A stretch of DNA of 64,000 bases. It comes from a bacterium. GTDB lineage: Bacteria > SZUA-182 > DTGQ01. Both the position numbers and the translations under genes were made by a program. Positions within the stretch are counted from its first letter, which is position 1, and every line of letters starts with the position of its first letter. Shown piece after piece: positions 5,332-63,759 of the stretch. The DNA is taken from assembly GCA_040755755.1 (NCBI GenBank), contig JBFLZW010000041.1, forward strand, positions 2,102 to 66,101, written 5' to 3'. The notes beneath the pieces are model-generated. The model was not told the origin of the DNA, searched no databases, and was given only the letters and a program-made list of their open reading frames with translations.

Positions 5332-6217
5332 CTCTTCCTCCTCCTTCTCCGTGCTGCTGCTGCTGCTGCATCAGACGGAGTTGCTCCCGGACCTTTTTTT
5401 CCCGCTCATCCAGGGATTGCAGTATCCTGAGGGCATCCTCTCTGGACATCTTCTGATCTTTCTTGTCCTGGTTCCCGGAATCCGGCTTACTCATGGCCGC
5501 CTCCTGCTGCTGCCGGTTTGGGTCCTGCTGAGCAGATTTTGCCTTTTCCTGCTCGCTGTTCTTTTGATCTTTCCGGTCCTGCTGGTTTCCCTGTTTTTGC
5601 TGGCCTTGCTTATTCTGCTGATCCTGTTTGCCCTGTTGATTCTTCCGGTCTTGCTGGCCCTGCTTGTTTTGTTGGTCCTGTGGGTTTTGCTGTTGATTCC
5701 GGGCCATCTCTTTCAGTTTTCGTTTGGCCAGTTCCAGGTTGAATTTGGCATCCTGGTCATCAGGCTCAAGGCCGAGAGATTTTTCGTACTGCTTGACAGC
5801 TTCGGGAAAATCATTCTGGCGGAATTTACAATTCCCAAGGTTATAGTGGGCTTTGGCCTGCACGGTACGGTCTTTTGACTGGGCCGCCTTGTGGTATTCT
5901 TCCGCTGCCTGCTCGAACTTCTCCTGCTTGAACAAAATATCCCCAATATTGAAATGGAGCACTTCCGATTCAGGATGGTCGAGCTGGGCATCCAGATATT
6001 CTTTTAATGCCTCCTCATACTTCCCCTGAGCATAGAGCTCATTCCCTCGTCTGGTTTTATTGATGAACGGGTTAGTCCAGGCCGTGCAGCAGGGGGCTGC
6101 CATAAAAAACAACATAACCACACAAACCCAAAAGAACAGAGGTGGAAATACCCTGCTCCCCTCTGTGTCTCTGTGTCTCTGTGGTTTCTTTTCCCCAAGG
6201 TACTGGTGATTCCTCAT
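5312..6217 (-). CDS. batC: BatC-like TPR protein with a Q/K/D-rich low-complexity C-terminal region
   Basis: TPR repeats are present (AQGKYEEALKEYLD, HYNLGNCKFRQNDFPEAVKQYEKSL), followed by a long QQNKQGQQDRKNQQ-type repetitive tract encoded by ~30-bp imperfect tandem DNA repeats. The ORF track extends it to 6340. The start at 6217 (MRNHQY) was chosen because it avoids overlap with batB. Confidence 0.55.
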   Translation of the reverse strand: MRNHQYLGEKKPQRHRDTEGSRVFPPLFFWVCVVMLFFMAAPCCTAWTNPFINKTRRGNELYAQGKYEEALKEYLDAQLDHPESEVLHFNIGDILFKQEKFEQAAEEYHKAAQSKDRTVQAKAHYNLGNCKFRQNDFPEAVKQYEKSLGLEPDDQDAKFNLELAKRKLKEMARNQQQNPQDQQNKQGQQDRKNQQGKQDQQNKQGQQKQGNQQDRKDQKNSEQEKAKSAQQDPNRQQQEAAMSKPDSGNQDKKDQKMSREDALRILQSLDEREKKVREQLRLMQQQQQHGEGGGRDVEYDW

Positions 6218-8965: not shown

Positions 8966-9834
8966 CTTTTGGCCCTCATCCGGAAAAATTTATTCAATTC
9001 ATCCACATATGGACGGTCGGTTACTACCTCGATGGAGTCCAGGCTCAGGGAGCGAAAAAGCTTCTGTCTCTCTGCCCGCTGCCGGTCGCTGGCCTGAAAA
9101 AACATCTCCCGGAAAGCCCGATCGGAGGTATCGATCAGGATTGTCTCTCCGGTTTCAGCATCTTCCAGCTCAATCAATCCTGCATCCGCAAGCTGCACTT
9201 CCCGGGGATCGGCGATGGCAATGGGAATGAGATCATGCTTTTGAGCAACGATCTCAAGAGCCTTCCGGTAGTCTGAGGAAAAAAAGTCGGAAATAAGAAA
9301 AGCAACACATTTTCGCCGGCTGACCCGGTATAAAAACTCGAGGGCTGCGCTCAGGCTGGTTTGCCGGCCTTGAGGCTGGAAATACAAAAGCTCCCGGATA
9401 ACCCGCAGGACATGCTTTTTCCCCTTTTTCGGGGTGATGAACTTTTCGATCCTGTCGGTAAAGATAATGAGGCCCACCCGGTCATTGTTCTTGATCGCTG
9501 AAAAGGCCAGAAGGGCACAGATTTCAGCCGCTATTTCGCCCTTCATCTGCCGGGCAGTCCCGAACTCTCCGGAAGAGCTGGCATCTACCAGGAGCATCAC
9601 CGTAAGCTCCCGTTCTTCCCGGTACTGCTTGATATGCGGATGGCCAGTCCTGGCCGTTACGTTCCAGTCGATAGACCGGATATCATCACCCATCTGGTAC
9701 TCGCGGACTTCTGCAAAGTCGATCCCCTGGCCCTTGAAGACGCTGTGGTATCCACCGGCCAGAAGATCGTTGACCAGACGGTTGGTGTAGATTTCGATAT
9801 GCCTGATTTTCTGAATGATTTCCTTGGGGAGCAT
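8956..9834 (-). CDS. DUF58-domain protein (MoxR partner)
   Basis: 292 aa containing a ...DWNVTAR...MLLVDASSS... DUF58 signature. It is directly downstream of moxR with a 10-bp overlap. Confidence 0.8.
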   Translation of the reverse strand: MLPKEIIQKIRHIEIYTNRLVNDLLAGGYHSVFKGQGIDFAEVREYQMGDDIRSIDWNVTARTGHPHIKQYREERELTVMLLVDASSSGEFGTARQMKGEIAAEICALLAFSAIKNNDRVGLIIFTDRIEKFITPKKGKKHVLRVIRELLYFQPQGRQTSLSAALEFLYRVSRRKCVAFLISDFFSSDYRKALEIVAQKHDLIPIAIADPREVQLADAGLIELEDAETGETILIDTSDRAFREMFFQASDRQRAERQKLFRSLSLDSIEVVTDRPYVDELNKFFRMRAKRWR

Positions 9835-11018: not shown

Positions 11019-12509
11019 TTATTTCTCCTTGATAGCAGTATACAGTAAATGGTCGTCCTCACGTTTAATAAGAAGGAGCAGGGTCTTTCTATTCTTTTTG
11101 GCTATCTTCTGGAATTCACTGACATCGGTAACTTTTTGCCGGTTAGCTTCCATGATAATATCACCCCTGCGGATATTTGCCCTGTCCGCTGCACTGCCGG
11201 GGGTAACATTGGTTACCAGAACGCCGGTGGTTTCGGACAGGTCGAAATGGTCAGCCAGTTCCGGGGTAATATTCTGAAGGCTCATGCCTAATTCGGTTTC
11301 CACCGGACCTTTTGCCACCTGCGCCTCGCCGGTGAAGGTTCCAATCTCGACCGTGACTTCCTTCTTCTTCATATCCCGGATAATTTCCAGCCGGACTTTG
11401 GTTCCCGGACGGGTAAGCCCTGCCATTCTGGACAGATCGGTGTATTCGCTGATCTCTTTTCCGTTAAAGGAAATGACTACATCCCCCTGTTTGAGTCCTG
11501 CCTTGTCTGCCGGGCTTCCTTCCACAACTTCTGCTACCAGGGCTCCCTTGTTTTCTTTCAGCCCGAAGGATTTGGCCAGGTCAGGAGTAACTTTTTGAAT
11601 GACCAGTCCAAGCCAGCCCCTGGTGATTTTTCCCTTCTCTTTCAGCTCCGGCATGGCCTCTTTGACCATATTGATGGGAATGGCAAACCCGATTCCCTGG
11701 CCTTCAGCCGTAATAGCCGTGTTGATGCCGACCACTTCTCCCCTGATATTGAGCAGCGGGCCTCCGCTGTTGCCCGGATTGATGGAAGCATCGGTCTGGA
11801 TAAACGAATCATAGGGCCCCTGCCCGATCGGCCGCCATTTGGCACTCACGATCCCGGCAGTTACGGTATGCTCCAGGCCAAAGGGATTGCCAATGGCTAC
11901 AACCCATTCTCCGATTTCCAGCCGGTCAGAGTCTCCGAACCTGACGAGCGGCAGATCTTCCTTGGCCTCGATTTTCAGGAGAGCAATGTCCATGTCCTCG
12001 TCGGACCCAATGACTTTGGCTTCGTACTCGTTTTTATTGGTCAGGGTGATCTTGATATCTTCGGCATCCTTCACCACGTGATTGTTGGTAAAAATATAAC
12101 CGTCTTTGCTGATGATAAAGCCCGATCCCAGGCTTTTCCTCTTCATGTCGCCTTTTGGTATCCCGAAGAATTTGTTGAAAAAGTCATCACCGAAAAAGTC
12201 CCGGAAGGGGTCGTTCATGGGAGCACGGAATTGAAAATTCTTGACCACCTGGGTGGAGCTGACATAAACGACAGCCGGATTTGCATCTTTGGCGATTTTA
12301 ACGAAGATATTGCCGGGAATGAAAGTTCCTGCTGGTTCAGCAGGCGGCTCTTTCGGTCTGGTATTGGTCTCAAGCTGGACTGCGGTACTGTTTCCCGTCC
12401 AGTTGAAATGCGAGGCGATCATGATCCCGATGAACACCGAAATGAGACAGGATACAACAATTCCCGGTACAATAAGCCTTTTTTTATCCATCCTCTTTTT
12501 CTCCTCCAT
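11019..12509 (-). CDS. htrA: periplasmic serine endoprotease DegP/HtrA with two PDZ domains
   Basis: It has a signal/TM at the N-terminus and the catalytic triad context (TNNHVV, D, GNSGGPL), followed by two PDZ-like regions. Confidence 0.9.
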   Translation of the reverse strand: MEEKKRMDKKRLIVPGIVVSCLISVFIGIMIASHFNWTGNSTAVQLETNTRPKEPPAEPAGTFIPGNIFVKIAKDANPAVVYVSSTQVVKNFQFRAPMNDPFRDFFGDDFFNKFFGIPKGDMKRKSLGSGFIISKDGYIFTNNHVVKDAEDIKITLTNKNEYEAKVIGSDEDMDIALLKIEAKEDLPLVRFGDSDRLEIGEWVVAIGNPFGLEHTVTAGIVSAKWRPIGQGPYDSFIQTDASINPGNSGGPLLNIRGEVVGINTAITAEGQGIGFAIPINMVKEAMPELKEKGKITRGWLGLVIQKVTPDLAKSFGLKENKGALVAEVVEGSPADKAGLKQGDVVISFNGKEISEYTDLSRMAGLTRPGTKVRLEIIRDMKKKEVTVEIGTFTGEAQVAKGPVETELGMSLQNITPELADHFDLSETTGVLVTNVTPGSAADRANIRRGDIIMEANRQKVTDVSEFQKIAKKNRKTLLLLIKREDDHLLYTAIKEK

Positions 12510-27205: not shown

Positions 27206-27523
27206 ATGGCTCCAATAGAATCTGTTTTAAATGAGATAGTGCGCAGAATCGTTGAAACTGTGCATCCAAAAAGAATTATTCTTTTTGGATCTGCTGTTCG
27301 AGGAAATATGGGACCTGACAGCGATCTGGACCTGCTCATTGTTGTATCATCGGGTGAGCATCGACGTAAGACAGCGCAGAAAATTTATAGAAATCTAATC
27401 GGCGTAGGTTTTGCAACCGATATCGTTGTGGTTACAGAAGGTGATCTGGAAAATTATAAAGATTGTATCGACCTGGTAATCCAACCGGCCCTCGAAGAAG
27501 GGAGAGTGCTCTATGCTGCGTGA
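27206..27523 (+). CDS. nucleotidyltransferase (MNT-type antitoxin) of a HEPN/MNT toxin-antitoxin pair
   Basis: The Pol-beta-like NTase motif GSAVRGNMGPDSDLDLL is present in a 105-aa protein that overlaps the following HEPN gene. Confidence 0.85.
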   Translation: MAPIESVLNEIVRRIVETVHPKRIILFGSAVRGNMGPDSDLDLLIVVSSGEHRRKTAQKIYRNLIGVGFATDIVVVTEGDLENYKDCIDLVIQPALEEGRVLYAA

Positions 27524-27926
27524 TCCGGGTGATTACCGTAATCCACATGAATGGATCAAAAGAGCAAAAAGTAATCTTATCCGTGCCCGGCAGCCTAAAG
27601 TGGAGGGGATATTATGGGAGGACCTTTGTTTTGACACTCAGCAGGCTGTGGAAAAGGCATTGAAAGCAGTGCTCTTGTCGCGGGGCATACGGTTTCGGTT
27701 TGTTCATGATATTGCTGAGCTGCTGACGATCCTTGAAAAACATGCTATTCACTTGCCTGATGAGATACGGGCCGCCGCCGGGTTGACCGATTATGCAGTG
27801 GAAACCAGATATCCGGGCACGGCTGAACCGGTTACCGAGGAGGAATTCAAAGAAGCACTCAGGACTGCTGAAGCAGTAGTCGTCTGGGCTCAGAGTTTGA
27901 TTGACGGCCCATCCTGCCAGAAGTGA
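27513..27926 (+). CDS. HEPN-domain protein (toxin partner)
   Basis: 137 aa with an Rx4H motif (RFRFVH). It overlaps the NTase gene by 11 bp, which is the typical HEPN/MNT module arrangement. Confidence 0.8.
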   Translation: MLRDPGDYRNPHEWIKRAKSNLIRARQPKVEGILWEDLCFDTQQAVEKALKAVLLSRGIRFRFVHDIAELLTILEKHAIHLPDEIRAAAGLTDYAVETRYPGTAEPVTEEEFKEALRTAEAVVVWAQSLIDGPSCQK

Positions 27927-40179: not shown

Positions 40180-40257
40180 CTCTGTGTACCTCTGTGCCTC
40201 TGTGTCTCTGTGGTGTCCTTTGTCTTTGTCTCTGTTTTTGCCTTTGTCTTTACTCCC
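40180..40257 (-). repeat. dispersed repeat family with (CACAGAG)3-4 heptamer core and an A-rich flank; copy between def and fmt
   Basis: The sequence GACACCACAGAGACACAGAGGCACAGAG plus an A-rich ACAAAG flank is present. Near-identical copies lie at 43824..43882 and 59897..59955. A shorter copy lies at 6161..6184 and a CTCTGCG variant at 36769..36793. Confidence 0.7.
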
Positions 40258-43823: not shown

Positions 43824-43882
43824 AAATAAATAAAATACAAATACCAATACCAACGACACCACAGAGGCACAGAGACACAGAG
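43824..43882 (+). repeat. copy of the (CACAGAG)n repeat family between uppP and ftsK
   Basis: The sequence AAATAAATAAAATACAAATACCAATACCAACGACACCACAGAGGCACAGAGACACAGAG is present. Confidence 0.7.
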
Positions 43883-43933
43883 ATACCCGGAGAAAAGACA
43901 GGGAGTAATGTATTCATAGACAGCTCCATAACC

Positions 43934-52000: not shown

Positions 52001-53218
52001 ATGGAGGATAAGAAGGGTGTACTCAGGGAGCTTCCGGTGAATATTTTACACATCCTGGACCATTCTCTCCCGTACGTTACCGGATACAGCCTGAGAAGCC
52101 ATACCATGATAAAACTGCAACGGGATTTGGGGTTCAATCCTCTGATCATCACTTCTTCCCGGCATGCCCTTGTCTCTAATCCCGTGGAGTTGATCGATGG
52201 GATTTATCACTACCGGACCTTTTTTCCGGAAGAAGGGGAAAATTTCGGGAAACACTGCCTTTTGGGGAAAGAAAAGCTCCTGATTTCTCTCCTGAATCGG
52301 GCTGTTTCGAAGATAGCGGCCCAGCAGAGGGTAGATTTGATCCATGCCCATTCTCCCTGTACCAATGGACTGGCCGCTCTGGAAGTCTGCCGGAGAAAGA
52401 GAATACCCCTGCTGTATGAGATTGATGATGTTCAGGACACCTTAACTGCCGGCCGCAAGGAGGAAACTCCGCTGTCGAGCCCTGTTTTGAGGAGAAATCT
52501 GGAAGCTTTTTTATGGCAGCAGGCCGGGGCTGTGGTGGTCAGGGAAGAAAGACAGCGGGAGGAAATCATCCGTTCGGGAATTCCCGGAGAAAATGTTTAC
52601 GTAGTTCCCCGGGAAGATGGCTGCACCAGAGAGACAAATTTGCAGGAGGATAATCAGACAGCAGGTTTCATCTGCTCTCTGTATCATCTGCAAGGGGTCA
52701 GTTCCCTGCTCGGAGTATTTTTGAAAGAAAGAAATTCAACCGGCGGCTCCCTCGCTGTTCCCGGCACGGAAGGAGACAGGAGGAAGAAAAAATCAGGAGT
52801 CAAATCCCAAGGTTCTGATACTTCAGGGCATATTATTTATATCGGTCAGGTCAAGCCCCGGAATTCCCGACGCCTGCATCCGCTCATCAATGTTCTGGTT
52901 TATCCGTGGTTAGCGGCGGGTCCAATCGGGGAGAAAGTTCTTTCTTCAGATCCGATCGATGCCCTGCTTATCGATGGAGGTGCTGCGGCTGGTGAAGCAG
53001 CCGATTTATGGGAGATGAAAGCGGATAAGCAGGCGCAGTCAACTTTAGGGGCTGAAGATATTTCCGAATTAACCGGCAGGTGTCTCAAGCTTCTCATAAA
53101 CAGGCAAATCAGGCACATTTGTGAGGAAAGATGCAGGCAGCAGGCCGGGAAGAATCCCTCCCGGCTTGAAGTAATGGAGCAGTATCTCAAAATTTATAAA
53201 ACGCTGCTCTCTCTCTAG
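52001..53218 (+). CDS. GT4-family glycosyltransferase-like protein (resembles the exosortase-locus-associated subfamily; C-terminal half divergent)
   Basis: The N-terminus ILHILDHSLPYVTGYSLRSHTMIKLQRDLGF...DLIHAHSP is typical of the GT4 N-domain. The C-terminal region is poorly conserved. Confidence 0.5.
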   Translation: MEDKKGVLRELPVNILHILDHSLPYVTGYSLRSHTMIKLQRDLGFNPLIITSSRHALVSNPVELIDGIYHYRTFFPEEGENFGKHCLLGKEKLLISLLNRAVSKIAAQQRVDLIHAHSPCTNGLAALEVCRRKRIPLLYEIDDVQDTLTAGRKEETPLSSPVLRRNLEAFLWQQAGAVVVREERQREEIIRSGIPGENVYVVPREDGCTRETNLQEDNQTAGFICSLYHLQGVSSLLGVFLKERNSTGGSLAVPGTEGDRRKKKSGVKSQGSDTSGHIIYIGQVKPRNSRRLHPLINVLVYPWLAAGPIGEKVLSSDPIDALLIDGGAAAGEAADLWEMKADKQAQSTLGAEDISELTGRCLKLLINRQIRHICEERCRQQAGKNPSRLEVMEQYLKIYKTLLSL

Positions 53219-53356: not shown

Positions 53357-55294
53357 ATGGGCGGAATTGTCGGAGCTTACGGATATTACAATCAGCAGCC
53401 GGTTCAGGAAGGGTTGATTCGGAAAATGACCAATACCTTAAAGCACCGGGGGCCGGACGAGAGGGGTGAATATCATGACCGGGAGCTTGCCCTGGGACAT
53501 CGGCGGCTGTGCATTATTGATAGGGAAGAAGGACAGCAGCCGCTGTTCAATGAAGACCGTTCAAAAGTGCTGGTCCTCGATGGAGAGATTTATAATTATC
53601 GAGAGCTGCAGCAGTATCTGAGGGGCAGGGGGCATTATTTCCAGACCGACTCCGATGCGGAAGTTGCTCTCCACCTCTATGAGGAAAAAGGAGTACAATT
53701 TCTTGGCGATCTGCAGGGCATGTTCTCCCTGGCACTGTGGGACAAGAAGGCCAGGCAACTGGTGCTGGCCCGCGACCAACTGGGCATCAAGCCGCTGTAT
53801 TACTGTTCTGACGGATACCGGCTGCTGTTTGCCTCCCAGATCAGAGCGCTTTTCCAGGACCGGACTGTGGACCGGGAGCTTAATCCCCGCAGCCTGGCCG
53901 ACTACTTGACTTACCTGTATGTTCCGGCACCCAAAAGCATTTTCCTGGGGATTTATAAAATCCCTCCGGGCTATTATCTGCTCTGTTCTCCGGAAGGGTA
54001 TGTGGTGCGAAAGTACTGGGATCTTGAATTACCTTCCCAGGAAGAGGAGGGGTCGTCTTGGGAGGAGTATCAGCACACCCTGCTCGATCTGCTTTCGGAG
54101 TCGATCAGCAGTCATTTGCCTGCCGGCATGCCGGCAGAGGTGTTCCTGAGTGGAGGGCTCGATTCGGCGACCCTGCTGGCTGTGGGGCATCGGCTGGGGG
54201 CAGACCTGCGGGCTTATACTCTCGGATTTGATGGGTCAGACATGGATGAGCGGCCCTTTTCACGCCTTCTGGCCCATTATTTCGACATTCCATACCGGGA
54301 ATGGGTCGGGAACCCGAAGATGATGCTGAAACGGTTGGACCAGGTGGTCCAGTCATATGATGAACCCCTGGGCGATGCCGCAACTGTTTTGACCTATGAA
54401 ATGGCCCGGCAGGCAGCAGGACAGCATACCAGAGTAGCCCTGTCCGGAGAAGGAGGGGGAATGATCTTTACCCCCTGCTGCCGGTATGGCCTGAACCGGG
54501 AGGATAATTGCATCCAGCGCTTGTGGTCAGACGGCATGGTGAATACTTATTCTCCGGGAGCGGGGAGCTGTTTGGGAGTTGGATGGATAGGTCGATTACT
54601 TCAGAGGCAACCCGGCCAGTCCGGGGCATCTTTGGCCCGTACGTACTTTAACTCCCTGGCCTGTTTTTCGGCCGAAGAGATCCATCGGCTTTTGAGCAGG
54701 GATTTCTTTTCCGAACTTCGCGGGTATGATCCATTTGTTCTGTTCCATGATCTCTACCAGAAGGCAGCCAGTCCCGACCCCTGCTCACGGCTGCACTATG
54801 TGGAGATGAAGAGCTATTTACCGGATAATGTACTGGCCAAAGTCGATCGAGCCGGTATGGCCAATTCCCTGGAAATCCGGCTGCCGCTTCTGAATCACCG
54901 GCTGGTGGAATTTCTCGTCCGGGTGCCGGTCCGGTTCAGGCTGAAGGGAACAGAAGAAAGATATCTTTTAAGAAAAACCCTGGAAGGGATTCTTCCGTCG
55001 GTAATTGTCTGGCGCAGGGAACAGAAAGCCGATCTCCTGTTCCGAAACCTGCTTTTGGATGACAGTTGCCTGACAGAGGAGGATTTGGGGCAGAGCAGTC
55101 ACTGTTCTCTTTTATCTGAAATCCTGAACTTTGACGAAATAACTTCCATCCGTCAGCACCATCGGCGGGGAAACCGGGATTACTCCAGGCAGATGTGGGC
55201 TGTACTTTTTTTGTGCAAATGGTACCGCCAGTACATGTCCAGAACCACCAGCAATGCCCGTGAAGAGGCTGAGCCATCGCTGGTGGTGTGCTAA
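53357..55294 (+). CDS. asparagine synthetase (AsnB)-family amidotransferase lacking the N-terminal nucleophilic Cys (MGGI instead of MCGI)
   Basis: It shows strong AsnB-like sequence (HRGPD, DGEIYN, the PP-loop SGGLDS), but codon 2 is GGC (Gly) rather than Cys. Confidence 0.85.
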   Translation: MGGIVGAYGYYNQQPVQEGLIRKMTNTLKHRGPDERGEYHDRELALGHRRLCIIDREEGQQPLFNEDRSKVLVLDGEIYNYRELQQYLRGRGHYFQTDSDAEVALHLYEEKGVQFLGDLQGMFSLALWDKKARQLVLARDQLGIKPLYYCSDGYRLLFASQIRALFQDRTVDRELNPRSLADYLTYLYVPAPKSIFLGIYKIPPGYYLLCSPEGYVVRKYWDLELPSQEEEGSSWEEYQHTLLDLLSESISSHLPAGMPAEVFLSGGLDSATLLAVGHRLGADLRAYTLGFDGSDMDERPFSRLLAHYFDIPYREWVGNPKMMLKRLDQVVQSYDEPLGDAATVLTYEMARQAAGQHTRVALSGEGGGMIFTPCCRYGLNREDNCIQRLWSDGMVNTYSPGAGSCLGVGWIGRLLQRQPGQSGASLARTYFNSLACFSAEEIHRLLSRDFFSELRGYDPFVLFHDLYQKAASPDPCSRLHYVEMKSYLPDNVLAKVDRAGMANSLEIRLPLLNHRLVEFLVRVPVRFRLKGTEERYLLRKTLEGILPSVIVWRREQKADLLFRNLLLDDSCLTEEDLGQSSHCSLLSEILNFDEITSIRQHHRRGNRDYSRQMWAVLFLCKWYRQYMSRTTSNAREEAEPSLVVC

Positions 55295-55836
55295 GTTGAG
55301 TTTGGCATGCCATTTGCATTAATGAACGTGGTAACGAAATAAATGCCCAGACCGGGGAGCTTCAACATGGCGGTGAATTGTGGGGGATGTTCGAAAACAT
55401 ATTGGAGCCCTTCCGGCCACGACAACTGAAGCGGAAAATCTGATTATTGCGAATTGTGAACGGTAATTTTCTCTGGTGACTGCGAACAAACTACTTGCGG
55501 AGCTTCGACTACACACGACAAATCCTATGACTGCTGGGTGAATGCTGCTGCTCACGAGGTATGGGAACTTTGCTCTCTGATCTGGGCTTTTATTACTGTC
55601 ATGGCACTGTTATGAGTGATTGTTGCCAGAGCCGACAGGAATTCTGCACTCAAATCTTGCTGGGCGGAATCCGGAAAGAGCGTGGCCGGCGTGCCCCTGT
55701 TGTGGACTGGCCTTCCAGAATCTGTATAAATTTTTACCAGGCACGATAGTGAGCTCGTCTCTCAGATCGAGGTATAGTATCTATATGTAATATTTATTCA
55801 TAACTTATACTAATTAATAACTATTTTAGCTTTATT

Positions 55837-55936
55837 TCTCCTGACTTCTGGCTCCTGATTTCTGACTTCCGGTTTCTGACTCCTGACTTCGCTCTCCTGA
55901 CCACGGACCATTGACTTTTGGCTCCTGACTCCGGGC
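55837..55936 (+). repeat. tandem heptamer/14-mer repeat array (CTCCTGA CTTCTGG)n upstream of the wza promoter
   Basis: It consists of 14 consecutive 7-bp units with TGA/TGG at fixed phase (ctcctga cttctgg ctcctga tttctga cttccgg tttctga ctcctga ...). Confidence 0.8.
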
Positions 55937-56006
55937 TTGGATCTCCTTAACTTGTAATTTACTAAATTTTACAATAAGTTTCTTACATAGCTGTCTGAAA
56001 AACTAG

Positions 56007-56035
56007 TTGACAAAGGGGTGGGCATGGTTTAATAT
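56007..56035 (+). promoter_or_regulatory. putative sigma-70 promoter (TTGACA-17 bp-TAATAT) about 210 bp upstream of wza
   Basis: It has a perfect -35 hexamer, a 17-bp spacer and an AT-rich -10 hexamer. Confidence 0.5.
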
Positions 56036-56247
56036 ACGTTCCGAAAAGCTGGCAAGAAATTATTACAATTAATTCAACTTCTACACTATAGTATGTCAAT
56101 TATCAAATGAGCTTCCTCGGGTGACAATTATCAACTAATTTTACTCACTTTTTTCTCGCTGTACAGAGTTTCGCGGATATTTTTGCCTGGAGGAGAGATT
56201 TCCCCGGTCACGAGTGCCCAATACGATAACTCCAATACGGGAAGGGG

Positions 56248-57249
56248 ATGAGAATGCTAACTATACTTATATTTATGCCTATGCTCCTGAAGGTCGGCTT
56301 ATTTTCCTGGGCTAGAGCTTGCTTTTTCTTCTCTGTTCAATTAAGGCGTCTGGCAGCGGTTCTCTTTTCCCTGGTTATCACCTGCCTTATCTCATCATCT
56401 TCCATCTCCATAGAGTTGAAGGATTATTCTATAGGTCCTCAGGATGTTTTAAAAATCGAGGTCTGGGATAATCCCGATTTATCGAGGGAAGTGACGGTCT
56501 CATTGAAAAATACCATTTCCTTCCCGCTGATAGGAGAAATGCAGGTTGAAGGGTATACCGTAGAGAATCTCCAGCAGAAGATCCGGACCCGTCTGGCAGA
56601 TGGTTATCTGGTTAATCCCCAGGTTACGGTAACGGTCAAGGAATATAACAGCAAAAAGGTTTATGTGCTGGGAGAGGTCGAGAAGCCCGGCTATTATCCC
56701 TTCTCCAAAGTAACCACCATGGTCGAGATCATCTCGATGGCTGGCGGACTTACTCCCGATGCCGGGCAGGAAGCTTATATTATCCGGTCTCCGGAGAAAA
56801 TTGACCCTGACGATATCAAACACCTCATTCAGGGAGGAAAAAACGACCTTCCCTCCGAAACTGCAATCAACAGCTCAAACACCATCCCCGGCAAGGGTTC
56901 TGCATCCGAGGGTGCAGTCAAAAACCAGGTTATTACTCTTAACCTGAACGACTTTAATCAGGGCATCAATCTCAATTTCGAGCTTCAGAATAATGATACT
57001 CTCTACATTCCCAAGGCCCAGTTTTTCTATGTGATTGGGGAAGTGAAATCTCCCGGACGGTTCAAGCTGGAAAAAGAGGTTAATGTACTGCAAACCATCT
57101 CGATGGCAGGCGGGCTTACTCAGAAGGCCAGTGAAAGAAAGATCAGGATCATCAGGACCCTGGATGGCAAGGAGCATGAGATAAAAGCCAAAATGACGGA
57201 TCTGGTTTTGCCGGATGACATAATCAAGGTTCCTGAGAGTTTCTTTTGA
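56248..57249 (+). CDS. wza: polysaccharide export outer-membrane protein (Wza/Poly_export + SLBB domains)
   Basis: The Poly_export motif IGPQDVLKIEVWDNPDL is present, followed by two SLBB-like repeats (...ISMAGGLT... twice). The exact start is uncertain. Confidence 0.85.
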   Translation: MRMLTILIFMPMLLKVGLFSWARACFFFSVQLRRLAAVLFSLVITCLISSSSISIELKDYSIGPQDVLKIEVWDNPDLSREVTVSLKNTISFPLIGEMQVEGYTVENLQQKIRTRLADGYLVNPQVTVTVKEYNSKKVYVLGEVEKPGYYPFSKVTTMVEIISMAGGLTPDAGQEAYIIRSPEKIDPDDIKHLIQGGKNDLPSETAINSSNTIPGKGSASEGAVKNQVITLNLNDFNQGINLNFELQNNDTLYIPKAQFFYVIGEVKSPGRFKLEKEVNVLQTISMAGGLTQKASERKIRIIRTLDGKEHEIKAKMTDLVLPDDIIKVPESFF

Positions 57250-57431
57250 ATTTAGCTGTTTATCCATCAAAGTTTATCTCCTCATAAGTTATATCTCAAG
57301 GTTTGGGTTTTCCCTTTCAGCATCACCATGCAGCGTTTTATTTGAAGTATGTATGTGCAGGAATAATTGTCGGTGTGGTTGTATGGCCGGGTTATCATTG
57401 CATCAGGTAACTCACAGGGCGAAGCTATTTT

Positions 57432-57503
57432 CAGGAGTCAGAATCCAGAAGTCAGAAGTCAGGAGAAGAGGATTGCTTATTCTGACTCCTGACTCCTGAC
57501 TCC
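57432..57503 (+). repeat. inverted array of the same heptamer repeat (AGTCAGA/TCTGACT) forming a long imperfect palindrome between wza and wzc
   Basis: The sequence CAGGAGTCAGAATCCAGAAGTCAGAAGTCAGGAG ... TTCTGACTCCTGACTCCTGACTCC is present. Confidence 0.75.
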
Positions 57504-57566
57504 AGGGTACGATATAGTTCAAACTTAAGGATAGTTGCCACAATCAGTATAGGGGAATACTTATCT

Positions 57567-59879
57567 ATGGAGCATCAACAATTGAGCTTTCAAGAGGAAG
57601 AGATACATCTTCGGGACTATTGGCGGGTCGTCATGAAGTATCGATGGACCGTCGTCACCCTCTTTATCATCGTGTTCGTAACCGTAGCTATAGCTACTTT
57701 CAGCGCCGAGCCGGTCTACAAGGCCACTGCCCAGATTCTCATCGATAAGGAAAACCCCAATGTTCTCTCAATCCAGGAGGTCATGTCCCTGGATGCTCAG
57801 GATCTTGACTACTATCAGACGCAATATAAAATTCTCCAGAGCCGGTCCCTGACCAGGGCGGTCATCAAGGCCATGGACCTTGCCCATCACAAGGAGTTTG
57901 ACAGTACTCAGCAGGAAAAAGGGCTGATTGCCACAGTCGCCAGCTCTATCAGGGAATCGCTCAGCTCCCTGCTGCATACCTTCTTTCCTTCCCGGCCTGA
58001 TTCTTCGGCAACAGCCACTCTGACTCCTCAGGAGATCCGTGACCGGGAGGAAGGCAGGCTGATCGATGCCTTTCTCGACAAGCTGCAGGTCGAGCCGATC
58101 AGAAACAGCCACCTGGTCAACATCAGCTTTCTGGCCCATGACCCGACCCTGACGGCAAGGGTTGTCAATGTCCTGGCCGATCAGTACATTCAACACAACC
58201 TGAAGCTCAAGTTCGAGGCCTCGATGGATGCCTCCGAGTGGTTGAACCGGAATGTGGGCGAGCTCAAGAAGAAGGTGGAAACCTCCGAGGAGGCCCTTCA
58301 CTCCTATAAGGAGGAGAATAAGATTGTCTCTCTTGAGGAAAAGCAGGACATTATCGTCCAGAAGCTTTCCGAGCTCAACACCGCAGTCACGGATGCCAAA
58401 ACCAAGAGGATCCGTCTTGAGACCCTCTATAATCAGGCAAACAAATTTAAAGCCAGCGGGGAGATGCTCGAATCCCTCCCTTCGGTCATGAATAACCCTC
58501 TCATCCAGGAGCTGAAAAAGGATTATATCTCTCTTCTGGCCGAGTATAACCGGGAGTCCAAACAATATGGTTCCAAGCATCCGCACATCATCAAGATCAG
58601 CTCTCAATTGACCTCTCTCAAGAACAGGATTCAGTCCGAGGTTCAAAAGATTGCCAACAGCATCAAGACCGAGTATGAAATCGCCGTAGCCCAGGAGCAG
58701 GTCCTGATCGAGGCCCTGAACGAGCAAAAGGAAGAGGCCCTGGAGCTGAACAAGAAGGCGATTCAATACAACGTCCTGAAGCGGGATGCCGAAAGCAACC
58801 AGCAGATGTTCGAGGTGGTCCTGAACCGCCTGAAAGAGACCGATCTGACCCGCGGCCTGAAGAACAGCAACATCCGGATCATCGACCGGGCCGAAGTGCC
58901 CGAATTTCCGATCAAGCCCAATAAAAAGCTCAACCTGTTACTGGGTGCGATCGTCGGGCTGTTTGCCGGTATCGGGCTGTCCTTCTTCTTTGAATATCTG
59001 GATAATACTATCAAGACCCCGGAAGACCTCAAGCGCTATCTTAACCTTACCTTTCTCGGTCCGGTTCCCCATCTGGATTTATCCGAAACAGAGGGACTTC
59101 CCTGCCCTGAGATGATAGCCCTGCACAAACCCAAAAGCCATACCAGTGAGGCCTACAAGGGCCTGCGGACCAGCGTCCTGTTCTCCTTCCCCGACCATGA
59201 TCCCAAGGCATTGCTGATTACCAGCGCCTCTCCTTCTGAAGGAAAGACCATTACATCGACCAATCTGGCCATCACCATGGCCCAGGGAGGCTCGCGGGTG
59301 GTCATGATTGACTGCGATATGCGCAAACCCCGTCTTCACCGCCTGTTGAATATGAAGAATGAAAAGGGAATTTCGAACCTGCTCATCGGCCAGTGCCCGA
59401 TCGAGGATGTTCTGCAGAATGGACCGGTGGACAATCTCAAGATTATAACCTGCGGCCATCGCCCTCCCAATCCTTCCGAGCTTCTGGTTTCTGATAACCT
59501 GAAAAATATCCTGACTGAGCTTAAAAAACGGTTCGATCATATCATCATCGACTCACCCCCGCTGGTTGCGGTAACGGATTCGGTAATCATCAGCCGCATT
59601 GTCGATGGTGTCATTCTGGTGATCCACGGAGGTGTGACCAGCAGGGAAGTCATCAAGCGGGGTTATGACCTTTTGAAAAATGTCAATGCCCCGATGCTCG
59701 GTGGAATCATAAATAATATTGACCTTGGCAAGCGAAGCTACTATTATTACTACCAGTATTATTATTACCAGTATTATGGAGACGGGGAAACGAAAACACA
59801 CAAGCGGCGCACGAGGAAAAAACGCGTACAGCATGCTGAGCACGAGGTAAACGAAAGCCGGGAGGTTGCCTGGAAATAA
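57567..59879 (+). CDS. wzc: polysaccharide co-polymerase / tyrosine autokinase (Wzc-like: Wzz chain-length domain + BY-kinase)
   Basis: It has 2 TM helices flanking a coiled-coil periplasmic domain, a Walker A motif SASPSEGKT and a C-terminal Tyr cluster YYYYYQYYYYQYY, followed by a basic tail. Confidence 0.9.
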   Translation: MEHQQLSFQEEEIHLRDYWRVVMKYRWTVVTLFIIVFVTVAIATFSAEPVYKATAQILIDKENPNVLSIQEVMSLDAQDLDYYQTQYKILQSRSLTRAVIKAMDLAHHKEFDSTQQEKGLIATVASSIRESLSSLLHTFFPSRPDSSATATLTPQEIRDREEGRLIDAFLDKLQVEPIRNSHLVNISFLAHDPTLTARVVNVLADQYIQHNLKLKFEASMDASEWLNRNVGELKKKVETSEEALHSYKEENKIVSLEEKQDIIVQKLSELNTAVTDAKTKRIRLETLYNQANKFKASGEMLESLPSVMNNPLIQELKKDYISLLAEYNRESKQYGSKHPHIIKISSQLTSLKNRIQSEVQKIANSIKTEYEIAVAQEQVLIEALNEQKEEALELNKKAIQYNVLKRDAESNQQMFEVVLNRLKETDLTRGLKNSNIRIIDRAEVPEFPIKPNKKLNLLLGAIVGLFAGIGLSFFFEYLDNTIKTPEDLKRYLNLTFLGPVPHLDLSETEGLPCPEMIALHKPKSHTSEAYKGLRTSVLFSFPDHDPKALLITSASPSEGKTITSTNLAITMAQGGSRVVMIDCDMRKPRLHRLLNMKNEKGISNLLIGQCPIEDVLQNGPVDNLKIITCGHRPPNPSELLVSDNLKNILTELKKRFDHIIIDSPPLVAVTDSVIISRIVDGVILVIHGGVTSREVIKRGYDLLKNVNAPMLGGIINNIDLGKRSYYYYYQYYYYQYYGDGETKTHKRRTRKKRVQHAEHEVNESREVAWK

Positions 59880-59896
59880 CCCGTGCAGGATAAGGC

Positions 59897-59955
59897 AAAA
59901 TACGAAATACAAAATGAAAATACAAAGGACACCACAGAGACACAGAGGCACAGAG
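59897..59955 (+). repeat. copy of the (CACAGAG)n repeat family between wzc and rfbD
   Basis: The sequence AAAATACGAAATACAAAATGAAAATACAAAGGACACCACAGAGACACAGAGGCACAGAG is present. Confidence 0.7.
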
Positions 59956-59981
59956 AAAAGCGAAGATAGATCAGGGAGATC

Positions 59982-60869
59982 ATGGTGAAAATTTTGCTGA
60001 TTGGATCCGGCGGCCAGGTTGGATGGGAGCTTGACAGGACATTGCAGGTTCTGGGCGAGGTCATCGCCCTGGATTATCCGGCAATCGATCTGACCAGCCC
60101 GGAGCAGATACGGAAAACGGTACGGGATATCCGTCCCGCGCTCATCGTCAATGCCGCCGCCTACACAGCCGTGGACAAGGCGGAGGAAGAGCCCGATGTC
60201 GCCCTGGCGATCAATGGCCGGGCACCGGGCATTCTGGCTGAAGAGGCAAAAAGGGTCGGGGCCGCTATCGTGCACTACTCCACCGACTATGTGTTCGATG
60301 GCCGGGGAAGCTCCCCCTATACCGAAAACGATACACCCAATCCCCTGAATACTTACGGTCGCACCAAGCTGGAGGGTGATCTGGCTGTCCAGGCGGCGGG
60401 TGTGCCGCATCTCATCCTGCGGGTCAGTTGGGTGTACGGAGCCCGGGGGAAGAATTTCCTGCTCACCATGCTGAAGCTGGCCGGGGAGAGGGAGGAAATC
60501 CGGGTGGTGGATGACCAGATCGGCAGCCCCACCTGGTGTCGGATGATCGCCGAGGCCACGGCCCAGATTCTGGCCCAGGGAGTGAGTGACCTTTCGGGGT
60601 TCCTCCGGGACCGGGGCGGGCTCTATCACCTGACCGCCGCAGGAAAGACAAGCTGGTTTGGCTTCACCAGGGCGATTCTGGCCGCAGATCCTCACCGGAA
60701 TGAGCACAAAGCCGTGCGGCTCATCCCGATTTCAACGGCTGAATATCCCACCAAAGCCAGGCGGCCTGCTTATTCGCTGTTATCATCCGAGGCTGCCCGT
60801 GCAGCGTTCGGTATCCGGCTTCCCGGATGGGAAAGCTCACTGAACCAGGTGTTATCAACTACAACCTAA
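59982..60869 (+). CDS. rfbD: dTDP-4-dehydrorhamnose reductase
   Basis: The sequence MVKILLIGSGGQVGWEL...YHYSTDYVFDG is RmlD-like. Confidence 0.9.
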   Translation: MVKILLIGSGGQVGWELDRTLQVLGEVIALDYPAIDLTSPEQIRKTVRDIRPALIVNAAAYTAVDKAEEEPDVALAINGRAPGILAEEAKRVGAAIVHYSTDYVFDGRGSSPYTENDTPNPLNTYGRTKLEGDLAVQAAGVPHLILRVSWVYGARGKNFLLTMLKLAGEREEIRVVDDQIGSPTWCRMIAEATAQILAQGVSDLSGFLRDRGGLYHLTAAGKTSWFGFTRAILAADPHRNEHKAVRLIPISTAEYPTKARRPAYSLLSSEAARAAFGIRLPGWESSLNQVLSTTT

Positions 60870-60904
60870 TAGAGTCAAGATAGAGTAAAGATAGAGTAAC
60901 GCCA

Positions 60905-62106: not shown

Positions 62107-62149
62107 CTCCCTCGCCCCTTGGGGGAGAGGGTTGGGGTGAGGGGGATGG
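62107..62149 (-). repeat. second copy of the GC-rich REP-like hairpin repeat, between rfbB and rfbA
   Basis: The sequence CTCCCTCGCCCCTTGGGGGAGAGGGTTGGGGTGAGGGGGATGG is the reverse complement of the 36693 copy, with a few substitutions. Confidence 0.6.
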
Positions 62150-62205
62150 CAGTTAGCAGGGTTTGGGGAAGGATTTTCGTCAGGAAGGAAGGATAAGGAA
62201 GGATT

Positions 62206-63194: not shown

Positions 63195-63416
63195 ATGAAA
63201 CAGGATATAAAAATCACTTCTCAGCACGAGCAAAGCCTTGTTGAGAAGATCCGCAGTCTTTCGCCTGAGAGGATTGCCGAGGTGGAAGACTTTATTGACT
63301 TCCTGTGTCAGCGCGACCTGGATCATCGTCTGACCCAATCGGCTGCCAGGCTCTCTGAACCAGCATTTCAAAAGGTATGGGATAATCCTGACGATGCAGA
63401 CTATGATCAGCTATGA
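63195..63416 (+). CDS. putative type II antitoxin
   Basis: 73-aa ORF overlapping the start of the downstream MazF/PemK-like toxin. Its own sequence is not diagnostic. Confidence 0.5.
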   Translation: MKQDIKITSQHEQSLVEKIRSLSPERIAEVEDFIDFLCQRDLDHRLTQSAARLSEPAFQKVWDNPDDADYDQL

Positions 63417-63759
63417 ATTTGGTGATGTTGTCCTTGTCCCGTTTCCTTTCACCGATCAGTCAGTCAGCAAAAAACGCCCGGCCATAGTCGTCAGCTCCAG
63501 CGCTTATCACCGGGAGCGTCAAGATATTGTCCTCATGGCGGCGACGAGCCAGATAAAACCATCGGCATCTTTTGGCGAAGTTACGATCGCTCAATGGGAG
63601 CAAGCCGGTCTCCTTAAACCATCAGTAATTAAGCCGATCTTTACCACGATCGAGAAGCTGCTTGTCTTGAGAAAGCTCGGAAGGCTCGATAAACGAGACA
63701 GGCGGAATCTTCAAGAGAGCCTTCGAGAGATTCTGGGCGAAGACGATGGTCACGGTTAA
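63403..63759 (+). CDS. MazF/PemK-family toxin (mRNA interferase-like)
   Basis: The sequence MISYEFGDVVLVPFPFTDQSVSKKRPAIVVSS is the PemK/MazF N-terminal signature. The ORF track start is 63394. Confidence 0.7.
   Translation: MISYEFGDVVLVPFPFTDQSVSKKRPAIVVSSSAYHRERQDIVLMAATSQIKPSASFGEVTIAQWEQAGLLKPSVIKPIFTTIEKLLVLRKLGRLDKRDRRNLQESLREILGEDDGHG

Follow-up and report, generated by a model that had tools for sequence, protein, structure and literature searches.

What the short tandem repeats on either side of the polysaccharide-export gene wza do, i.e. whether they form a control element for export or are ordinary repeats of intergenic DNA, is the question raised by this locus. The window analysed is a bacterial DNA stretch of 64,000 nucleotides (64 kb), in which wza belongs to a polysaccharide-export cluster with the following genes:

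52001-53218, GT4 glycosyltransferase gene
53357-55294, asparagine-synthase-like gene
56254-57249, + strand, wza (Poly_export and SLBB by Pfam)
57567-59879, + strand, wzc (Wzz, GNVR and P-loop by Pfam)
downstream of wzc, rmlD, rmlB and rmlA

The recorded wza product begins at the second ATG and has 331 aa, and exact-protein look-ups made with our own open reading frame coordinates for wza (333 aa) and wzc (770 aa) gave no match. Elsewhere the window consists of ordinary chromosomal DNA, with groEL, a sigma-70 family factor, comEC, ftsK, def-fmt, lolA and a multihaem cytochrome; the closest named sequences to its GroEL (~80%) come from Nitrospinota, Methylomirabilales and Acidobacteriota. Modules of the toxin-antitoxin type are also present, namely a nucleotidyltransferase/HEPN pair (27206-27926) and a MazF/PemK-like toxin gene (63394-63759), the latter directly downstream of rmlA.

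The first of the two repeat tracts lies upstream of wza:

55837..55936, + strand, about 14 degenerate tandem heptamers, consensus YTYCTGA (CTGACTY register)

An earlier note on this DNA had counted 14 seven-bp units at 55837-55936, and this count is confirmed by direct reading, by Tandem Repeats Finder (periods 7, 14 and 21, with 65-72% matches) and by lag identity, which is 0.61, 0.64, 0.58 and 0.62 at lags 7, 14, 21 and 28, respectively, the shuffle mean being 0.28 (z 6-7.6). The lag values make 7 the basic period. The alternation of CTCCTGA and CTTCTGG, as originally described, is a simplification; what stands of it is a real but slight 14-nt super-period, with exact CTCCTGA at 55838, 55852, 55880, 55894 and 55922, all in a single 14-nt phase. 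On the wza sense strand the array is pyrimidine-rich and without a paired arm; four consecutive units are within one mismatch of the heptamer, and perfect tandem repetition extends over no more than 13 nt (1.9 units). The double-unit pattern YTYCTGAYTYCTGA, allowing at most one mismatch, has 10 matches in the 64 kb when 0.62 are expected (~16-fold), a number reached in none of 100 shuffles, and nine of the 10 fall within two sites flanking wza, which bears out the claim that heptamer arrays lie on both sides of the gene. Indeed, only two YTYCTGA arrays are found in the 64 kb and they occupy neighbouring spacers, an arrangement with a rough chance estimate of ~0.06, which was counted against neutrality.

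The second tract lies between wza and wzc and is an inverted pair of arrays:

57431..57465, + strand, left purine-rich arm, five reverse-complement units (TCAGGAG, TCAGAAT, CCAGAAG, TCAGAAG, TCAGGAG)
57466..57478, + strand, loop or spacer of the pair, a 13-nt gap (AAGAGGATTGCTT)
57479..57503, + strand, right pyrimidine-rich arm, 3.5 units (ATTCTGA, CTCCTGA, CTCCTGA, CTCC)

An inverted array able to form an imperfect hairpin had been proposed for 57432..57503, and it is real (57431-57503), with a predicted minimum free energy of -32.8 kcal/mol as RNA (z -2.6) and of -15.8 as DNA (z -3.0). The order of the arms is - then +, i.e. purine arm first, and the right arm holds the sole perfect tract of at least three units (22 nt, 3.1 units, 57482-57503). 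The pair is placed 181 nt past the wza stop (57249) and 64 nt ahead of the wzc start (57567), and since the two genes are co-directional, both being on the + strand, it would be transcribed if they share an mRNA. The reading of the hairpin as an intrinsic (Rho-independent) terminator was rejected because CCAGGGTACGATA comes next and no U-run follows the stem; a scan for + strand terminators in 55200-57650 returned none. Rfam gave no gathering-level match in the window, the hairpin producing only chance matches to miRNA precursors (E 0.2-0.65), and the heptamer arrays here have no G-quadruplex potential.

The upstream array has a single inverted partner, namely the pair's left arm at a distance of 1.5 kb: over 35 nt, 55852-55886 and 57431-57465 are 91% complementary and, at 1544 nt from each other, bracket the promoter and wza. 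A switch by inversion between these repeats was considered and set aside because the nearest relative (L003, see below) is without the downstream arm and no assembly contains the inverted arrangement. In the Logan assembly of the same organism (L001), an independent contig terminates inside the left arm (11178-11207, equivalent to ~57433-57462 of the window), which may reflect copies of the repeat elsewhere in the genome or heterogeneity of the population.

The upstream array is one of several features of the ~950-bp stretch 55295..56247, which had been taken as simply non-coding. It contains no open reading frame of 90 aa or more, in agreement with that description, but it is far from featureless, as it also holds a sigma-54-type motif and an RNA-like element:

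55303-55317, + strand, sigma-54-type promoter motif (TGGCATGCCATTTGC; TGGCAY-N5-TTGC in syntenic loci)
55345-55594, + strand, conserved ~250-nt RNA-like element, its ends forming an invariant 15-bp stem, with a terminal U-run
55595..55951, + strand, hypervariable spacer between the U-run of the RNA-like element and the ATTTACYAAATTT box, with the array in its 3' part
55952..55974, + strand, conserved promoter-upstream box (ATTTACYAAATTT box), a palindrome TTGTAA-N11-TTACAA containing ATTTACTAAATTT
56007..56035, + strand, sigma-70-type wza promoter, TTGACA-17-TAATAT, outside the repeat

The near-consensus sigma-70 promoter that had been noticed downstream of the array matches 10 of 12 positions, and the array lies 71-170 nt upstream of it, its end being 71 nt from the -35 hexamer and 311 nt from the wza start codon.

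Relatives, i.e. syntenic loci from other assemblies, were reached through Wza homologues. L001, the Logan assembly of SRR25621602, is from the window's own organism; Wza identity to the window is 86% for L003, 76% for L002 (= L124 = L210), 68-73% for L126 (= L204) and L205, 72-80% for L129 (= L208), 74% for L206 and 70% for L207, the last having a different upstream context. The order of elements is the same in all syntenic loci, namely asparagine-synthase-like gene, sigma-54-type motif, ~250-nt RNA-like element, variable spacer, ATTTACYAAATTT box, sigma-70 promoter and wza. The sigma-70-type promoter is kept in all of them, with 36-37 nt between the ATTTACYAAATTT box and the -35 hexamer; in L207 this distance is 34 nt, so that the spacing is fixed at 34-37 nt across six related wza loci. 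On the basis of this sequence comparison, the palindromic box at 55952-55974 is a candidate, and likelier than the array, for the regulator site of the wza promoter. The segment 55303-55594, with its sigma-54-type motif and RNA-like element, is present in five syntenic relatives and has no Rfam match; covariation within the element is weak (six sequences), and the segment may be a small RNA or leader, dependent on sigma-54, adjoining the exopolysaccharide (EPS) genes.

What lies between these conserved blocks behaves differently. In the six loci with an RNA element (the window included; L207 is without the element), the spacer from the U-run to the ATTTACYAAATTT box ranges from 32 to 362 nt:

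window, spacer 362 nt, heptamer array in the 3' part
L003, spacer ~240 nt, heptamer array
L208, spacer 273 nt, five or six TTTTTCTTAA-type repeats at ~21-nt spacing
L204, spacer 183 nt, three ~20-nt repeats, CTTTTCTTAACGGATGGGG
L124, spacer 78 nt, vestige only
L206, spacer 32 nt, no repeat

In L207 the ATTTACYAAATTT box and the promoter are present without RNA element and without array. The place of the window's heptamers is taken by ~20-nt repeats of the TTTTCTTAAC type in L204 (2520-2560) and L208 (2540-2720), and in L002 a ~190-nt AT-rich block of ATAGA-type repeats (9260-9420) is found between the sigma-54-type motif and the RNA-like element. An array of the operator or iteron type, conserved with the promoter at a constrained distance, is contradicted by L124, L204, L208, L206 and L207. 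The claim that the array is a control element for the export genes is not supported by this comparison, in which promoter and box are kept while the array is absent or replaced and the spacer varies from one extreme of the range to the other; nor is the more specific proposal of repeated sites for a dimeric regulator of the wza promoter, as the array is not conserved with the promoter module. Close relatives keep the promoter without the arrays, and therefore the arrays are probably not a dedicated wza switch.

The same holds for the spacer between wza and wzc, where the inverted pair fills a second variable segment:

57429..57505, + strand, hypervariable wza-wzc segment, preceded by the block ending GGGCGAAGCTAT (57385-57428) and followed by the sequence that leads up to the wzc ribosome-binding block

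Here the block ending GGGCGAAGCT and the wzc ribosome-binding block are conserved, and the enclosed segment differs in every lineage, being the heptamer pair in the window, a small GC hairpin in L003, CACAC-AAA-GTGTG in L002 and (TATGAGTACTTGT)x3 in L204. No consistent hairpin is predicted at that position in the relatives, and the possibility of a hairpin conserved in this spacer was discarded, the equivalent segment folding no better than shuffles (z +0.96 in L003, -0.28 in L206). The block upstream of wzc (57385-57428, + strand), GGCCGGGTTATC..GGTAACTCACAGGGCGAAGCTAT, is kept in all relatives and contains a small GGTTAC/GTAAC hairpin followed by CACRGGGCGAAGCT; by analogy, its position recalls the leader elements of polysaccharide operons. 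When 481 kb (the window and more than 80 Wza-related loci) were scanned with relaxed criteria, the window, L001 and L003 were the only ones to show YTYCTGA arrays, and a search through asparagine-synthase homologues yielded no further close relative with the array.

How such arrays change can be seen from the window and L003, the nearest relative, whose upstream arrays are set apart by point changes and by two indels, one of exactly 14 nt and one of exactly 7 nt; whole-unit indels are the signature of slippage, here on an evolutionary time scale. Both sites carry an intergenic head-to-tail heptamer repeat of the kind known as STRR-like, varying between relatives. The L003 array contains a perfect (TTCTGAC)x5, and an internal array segment, CTGACCACGGACCA, is identical in the window and L003, its retention in two lineages having been counted against neutrality. 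Within strains, as far as assemblies (which are consensus sequences) tell, L001 equals the window across the upstream array, and L002, L124 and L210 are mutually identical across the spacers compared.

Furthermore, repetition is common in the spacers of this chromosome. In the window, the density of tandem repeats, which have many kinds of unit, is ~5 times higher in intergenic than in coding DNA (1.5 and 0.31 per kb, p 3e-5), and each spacer of the wzc-rmlD-rmlB-rmlA series has a separate tandem repeat of its own:

59896-59926, CAAAATA x4.6
60869-60899, ATAGAGTAAAG x2.8
62119-62149, a 14-mer x2.3
62185-62204, AAGGAAGGAT x2

The heptamers at wza are one case of this general repeat habit of the genome. 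An octamer family, CTCTGTGT/CACAGAGA, also occurs in ~3 tandem copies at four intergenic sites (6161-6183, 40180-40212, 43860-43883 and 59933-59956), one of them 26 nt upstream of rmlD, and an CACAGAGG-type repeat akin to this family is found in the wza-wzc spacer of L204.

The heptamer itself is not peculiar to this lineage. Heptamers are over-represented among the simple repeats of bacterial intergenic DNA and vary greatly between close relatives (PMC4692102, PMC4679880). The nearest counterpart is in the Geobacter metallireducens genome paper of 2009, where eight pairs of 'class 3 predicted global regulator binding sites' are listed, 15 of the 16 sites being five tandem heptanucleotides with the consensus MTYCTGA; each pair has one site per strand, with a gap of varying length between them, and is annotated as lying 3' of a gene and 5' of the one that follows (Table S4), and their function is given as a hypothesis only, that of a regulator of the IHF/HU type (PMC2700814). 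The window shares with them the units CTCCTGA, CTTCTGA and ATTCTGA, about five units per site and the (-) site at the lower coordinate. Tandem units are present in the left arm (5), the right arm (3.5) and the upstream array (14); the opposite-strand arrangement is present in the pair 57431-57465/57479-57503, as are the purine-arm-first order and the location between co-directional genes. By contrast, the upstream array is unpaired, longer and more degenerate than the Geobacter sites, the host is not a Geobacter and the number of heptamer sites within the available 64 kb of its genome is two. By sequence and architecture, the heptamer pair and the array at wza belong to this already known, uncharacterized class of heptamer repeats.

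Other published heptamers are more distant. The TAACTGA direct repeats of marine Beggiatoaceae, some Cyanobacteria and Bacteroidetes (MacGregor 2015, PMC4679880) are likewise intergenic, have a CTGA core and stops in all frames on one strand, and are similar to the window's heptamer in their patchy cross-phylum distribution and unknown function; however, they mostly have 2-6 units, lie a few nucleotides upstream of starts and form 169 direct sets and 1 indirect set (PMC4679880), whereas the window arrays are 311 and 64 nt from start codons and one of them is an inverted pair. Cyanobacterial STRR-type repeats and the GGGAATC repeats of Xanthomonas share the intergenic location, the variation between relatives and occasional inverted pairs that could form stem-loops, as in the window, but the repeats of Rehm et al. 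are G-rich and quadruplex-forming, and the window's unit differs from them (Rehm et al. 2015, PMC4692102).

A scan for CTGACTY x3, with one genome per species, gave at least 120 loci in many phyla, the matches listed including filamentous cyanobacteria, Acidobacteriota, Verrucomicrobiota, Bacteroidota, Nitrospirota, Planctomycetota and others; the genome of the window is not among the matches listed, of which 105 of 136 arrays are wholly intergenic by crude open reading frame calls. No consistent association of the motif with promoters emerged in other genomes. In viral contigs CTGACTY x3 occurs in 112 stretches, as compared with 45 and 12 for two composition-matched permutations (TAACTGA x3, 107), and this 2.5-9-fold excess was also counted against neutrality.

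Two regularities of the class were obtained from more than 230 genome and viral loci among the matches listed (L004-L123, L211-L322), with inverted pairs taken within 300 nt. Among these loci, 31 inverted pairs have the purine arm first and one has the reverse order (one viral pair being a duplicate); the window pair and all eight Geobacter pairs are also purine-arm-first, and the sequences between the arms of the 31 pairs are unrelated and 1-172 nt long. Since an inverted repeat reads identically on both strands, the bias in arm order does not come from the direction of transcription and suggests that some property of the class, structural or at the level of RNA, lies behind it. Furthermore, arrays in the purine sense lie within 30 nt past the upstream stop codon in 83 of 198 cases and those in the pyrimidine sense in 14 of 136 (odds ratio 6.3, p 9e-11, with crude longest-ORF calls). 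Array-to-start-codon distances were discarded as unreliable, because the pyrimidine strand has TGA in all frames and the longest-ORF rule places starts right after the array. Simple counts of single arrays gave no strand bias relative to the flanking genes, the bias appearing only with stop-codon distance, and no arm-to-arm covariation of unit variants was detected in register (Stouffer z 0.8; z -1.8 for the window itself). Neither arm order nor stop-codon polarity is mentioned in the publications consulted. Both are non-neutral regularities of the class and were counted against neutrality.

What, then, would the arrays do at wza? That the upstream one is a phase-variation device, in which slippage would alter promoter geometry and toggle capsule or EPS export, is very improbable. 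The whole-unit indels that separate the window from L003 and the five perfect units of L003 are what such a device would leave behind, and to that extent the earlier suggestion of a slippage-prone tract has held up. Repeats upstream of the -35 hexamer are also known to modulate promoters, as in nadA of Neisseria meningitidis, where a TAAA tract has this position and effect. Tracts of the nadA type resemble the present array in being tandem repeats upstream of the -35 of a surface-structure gene; however, they are perfect and hypermutable within a strain, whereas the window's array is degenerate, with fewer than two perfect units, and invariant in the available assemblies. The long perfect tract expected of frequent slippage is found neither in the array (13 nt) nor in the right arm (22 nt), and with a longest perfect tract of less than two units and identical assemblies of the same strain, a fast phase switch, i.e. 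high-frequency phase variation at the upstream array, is unlikely in the window strain. Moreover, the array ends upstream of the ATTTACYAAATTT box, 71 nt off the -35 hexamer, so that changes in unit number would spare the promoter core, and spacers of 32-362 nt are tolerated among the relatives. Binding of a nucleoid-associated or 'global' regulator to the arrays, as multimeric sites from which the export genes would be controlled, is less far-fetched and still rather unlikely. An IHF/HU-type protein is what the Geobacter paper proposes for the paired MTYCTGA sites (PMC2700814), in Nostoc, reporter output was affected by the deletion of heptamer repeats close to promoters (Pradhan et al. 2022 preprint, bioRxiv 10.1101/2022.06.06.494920), the fixed relative orientation of the arms (31:1) would suit an oriented filament or loop, and the weak 14-nt super-period goes in the same direction; yet no binder of the YTYCTGA motif is known, relatives have the same promoter module without the array, the units are highly degenerate, the spacing or loop length of the pairs goes from 1 to 172 nt, and the relation to stop codons, being strand-specific, speaks for RNA or translation rather than for duplex DNA.

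For the inverted pair in particular, insertion between wza and wzc of a small mobile element of the REPIN/MITE type with heptamer-array ends may be thought of, as the pair fits exactly a segment that differs between relatives and has conserved blocks on either side, the fixed arm orientation resembles terminal inverted repeats, and the break of an independent assembly in the left arm could reflect multiple copies. This origin is nevertheless quite improbable, in that the cores of the 31 pairs have no common sequence, no target-site duplication is seen, the L003 segment is replaced rather than simply empty, the arms vary by slippage as ordinary arrays do and the window contains no transposase candidate. 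The REP/BIME and REPIN of enterobacteria and pseudomonads, extragenic palindromic units that are often found between co-directional genes of operons, are ~35-nt palindromes mobilized by RAYT transposases and can stabilize the upstream mRNA. Like them, the window pair lies between co-directional genes and is not conserved between relatives, but REPs are unique ~35-nt palindromes, unlike slippage-prone heptamer arrays, and no RAYT is seen in the window. Alternatively, the paired array, and perhaps the whole class, may be a selected RNA element, acting in protection from 3' decay, in translational coupling or in hiding a C-rich Rho-loading tract. The arm-order bias, being the same on both strands, can be told apart only by an RNA or structural property, purine-sense arrays are close to the upstream stop codon, every Geobacter pair is placed 3' of a gene N and 5' of gene N+1 (PMC2700814), the wza-wzc pair has a stable predicted fold and 16 of 18 classifiable pairs lie between co-directional genes, although this last count depends on crude open reading frame calls and is not clearly above the genomic background. 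Against such a role, which remains doubtful, the window pair touches neither wza nor wzc, relatives have no equivalent hairpin and the arms are without covariation. A bolder form of the same idea makes MTYCTGA arrays a cross-phylum, strand-polar element of operon mRNAs and the wza-wzc pair a functional one, tuning the channel:kinase ratio: the purine arm would bring AGGAG-like repeats just past a stop codon, the pyrimidine arm CUCCU and UGA in all frames ahead of the next gene, and the element could act in translational coupling, mRNA stabilization or Rho shielding. To this only a low probability is assigned.

The explanation that is favoured, as somewhat better than an even bet, is that the arrays are neutral heptamers generated by slippage in hypervariable spacers, with the upstream one outside the promoter module and the pair having at most a modest effect at the RNA level. 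Both tracts are made of one heptanucleotide, YTYCTGA, which belongs to a widespread intergenic class whose arrays expand, contract and decay through whole-unit replication slippage and which, at wza, fills two hypervariable segments between strongly conserved non-coding blocks. The conserved control module of the wza promoter consists of the ATTTACYAAATTT box and TTGACA-17-TAATAT; the upstream array is outside it and, presumably neutral, would have no sequence-specific regulatory role at wza and at most that of spacer DNA between the terminator-like end of the RNA element and the promoter. The downstream tract is a purine-arm-first inverted pair of the Geobacter metallireducens 'class 3' MTYCTGA kind, able to fold into an imperfect stem-loop if transcribed on a shared wza-wzc mRNA; any effect of it would probably be a modest shift in how strongly the wza and wzc mRNA are expressed, or how stable they are, relative to each other.

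As for the likely control of wza, attention shifts from the repeats to the conserved ATTTACYAAATTT box with its sigma-70 promoter, and to the conserved sigma-54-type promoter with the ~250-nt RNA-like element upstream. The cross-phylum regularities of the heptamer class are of greater interest than its part in wza control and, should they hold under proper gene calls, a repeat class listed in 2009 would become a testable candidate for an RNA-level element of operons.
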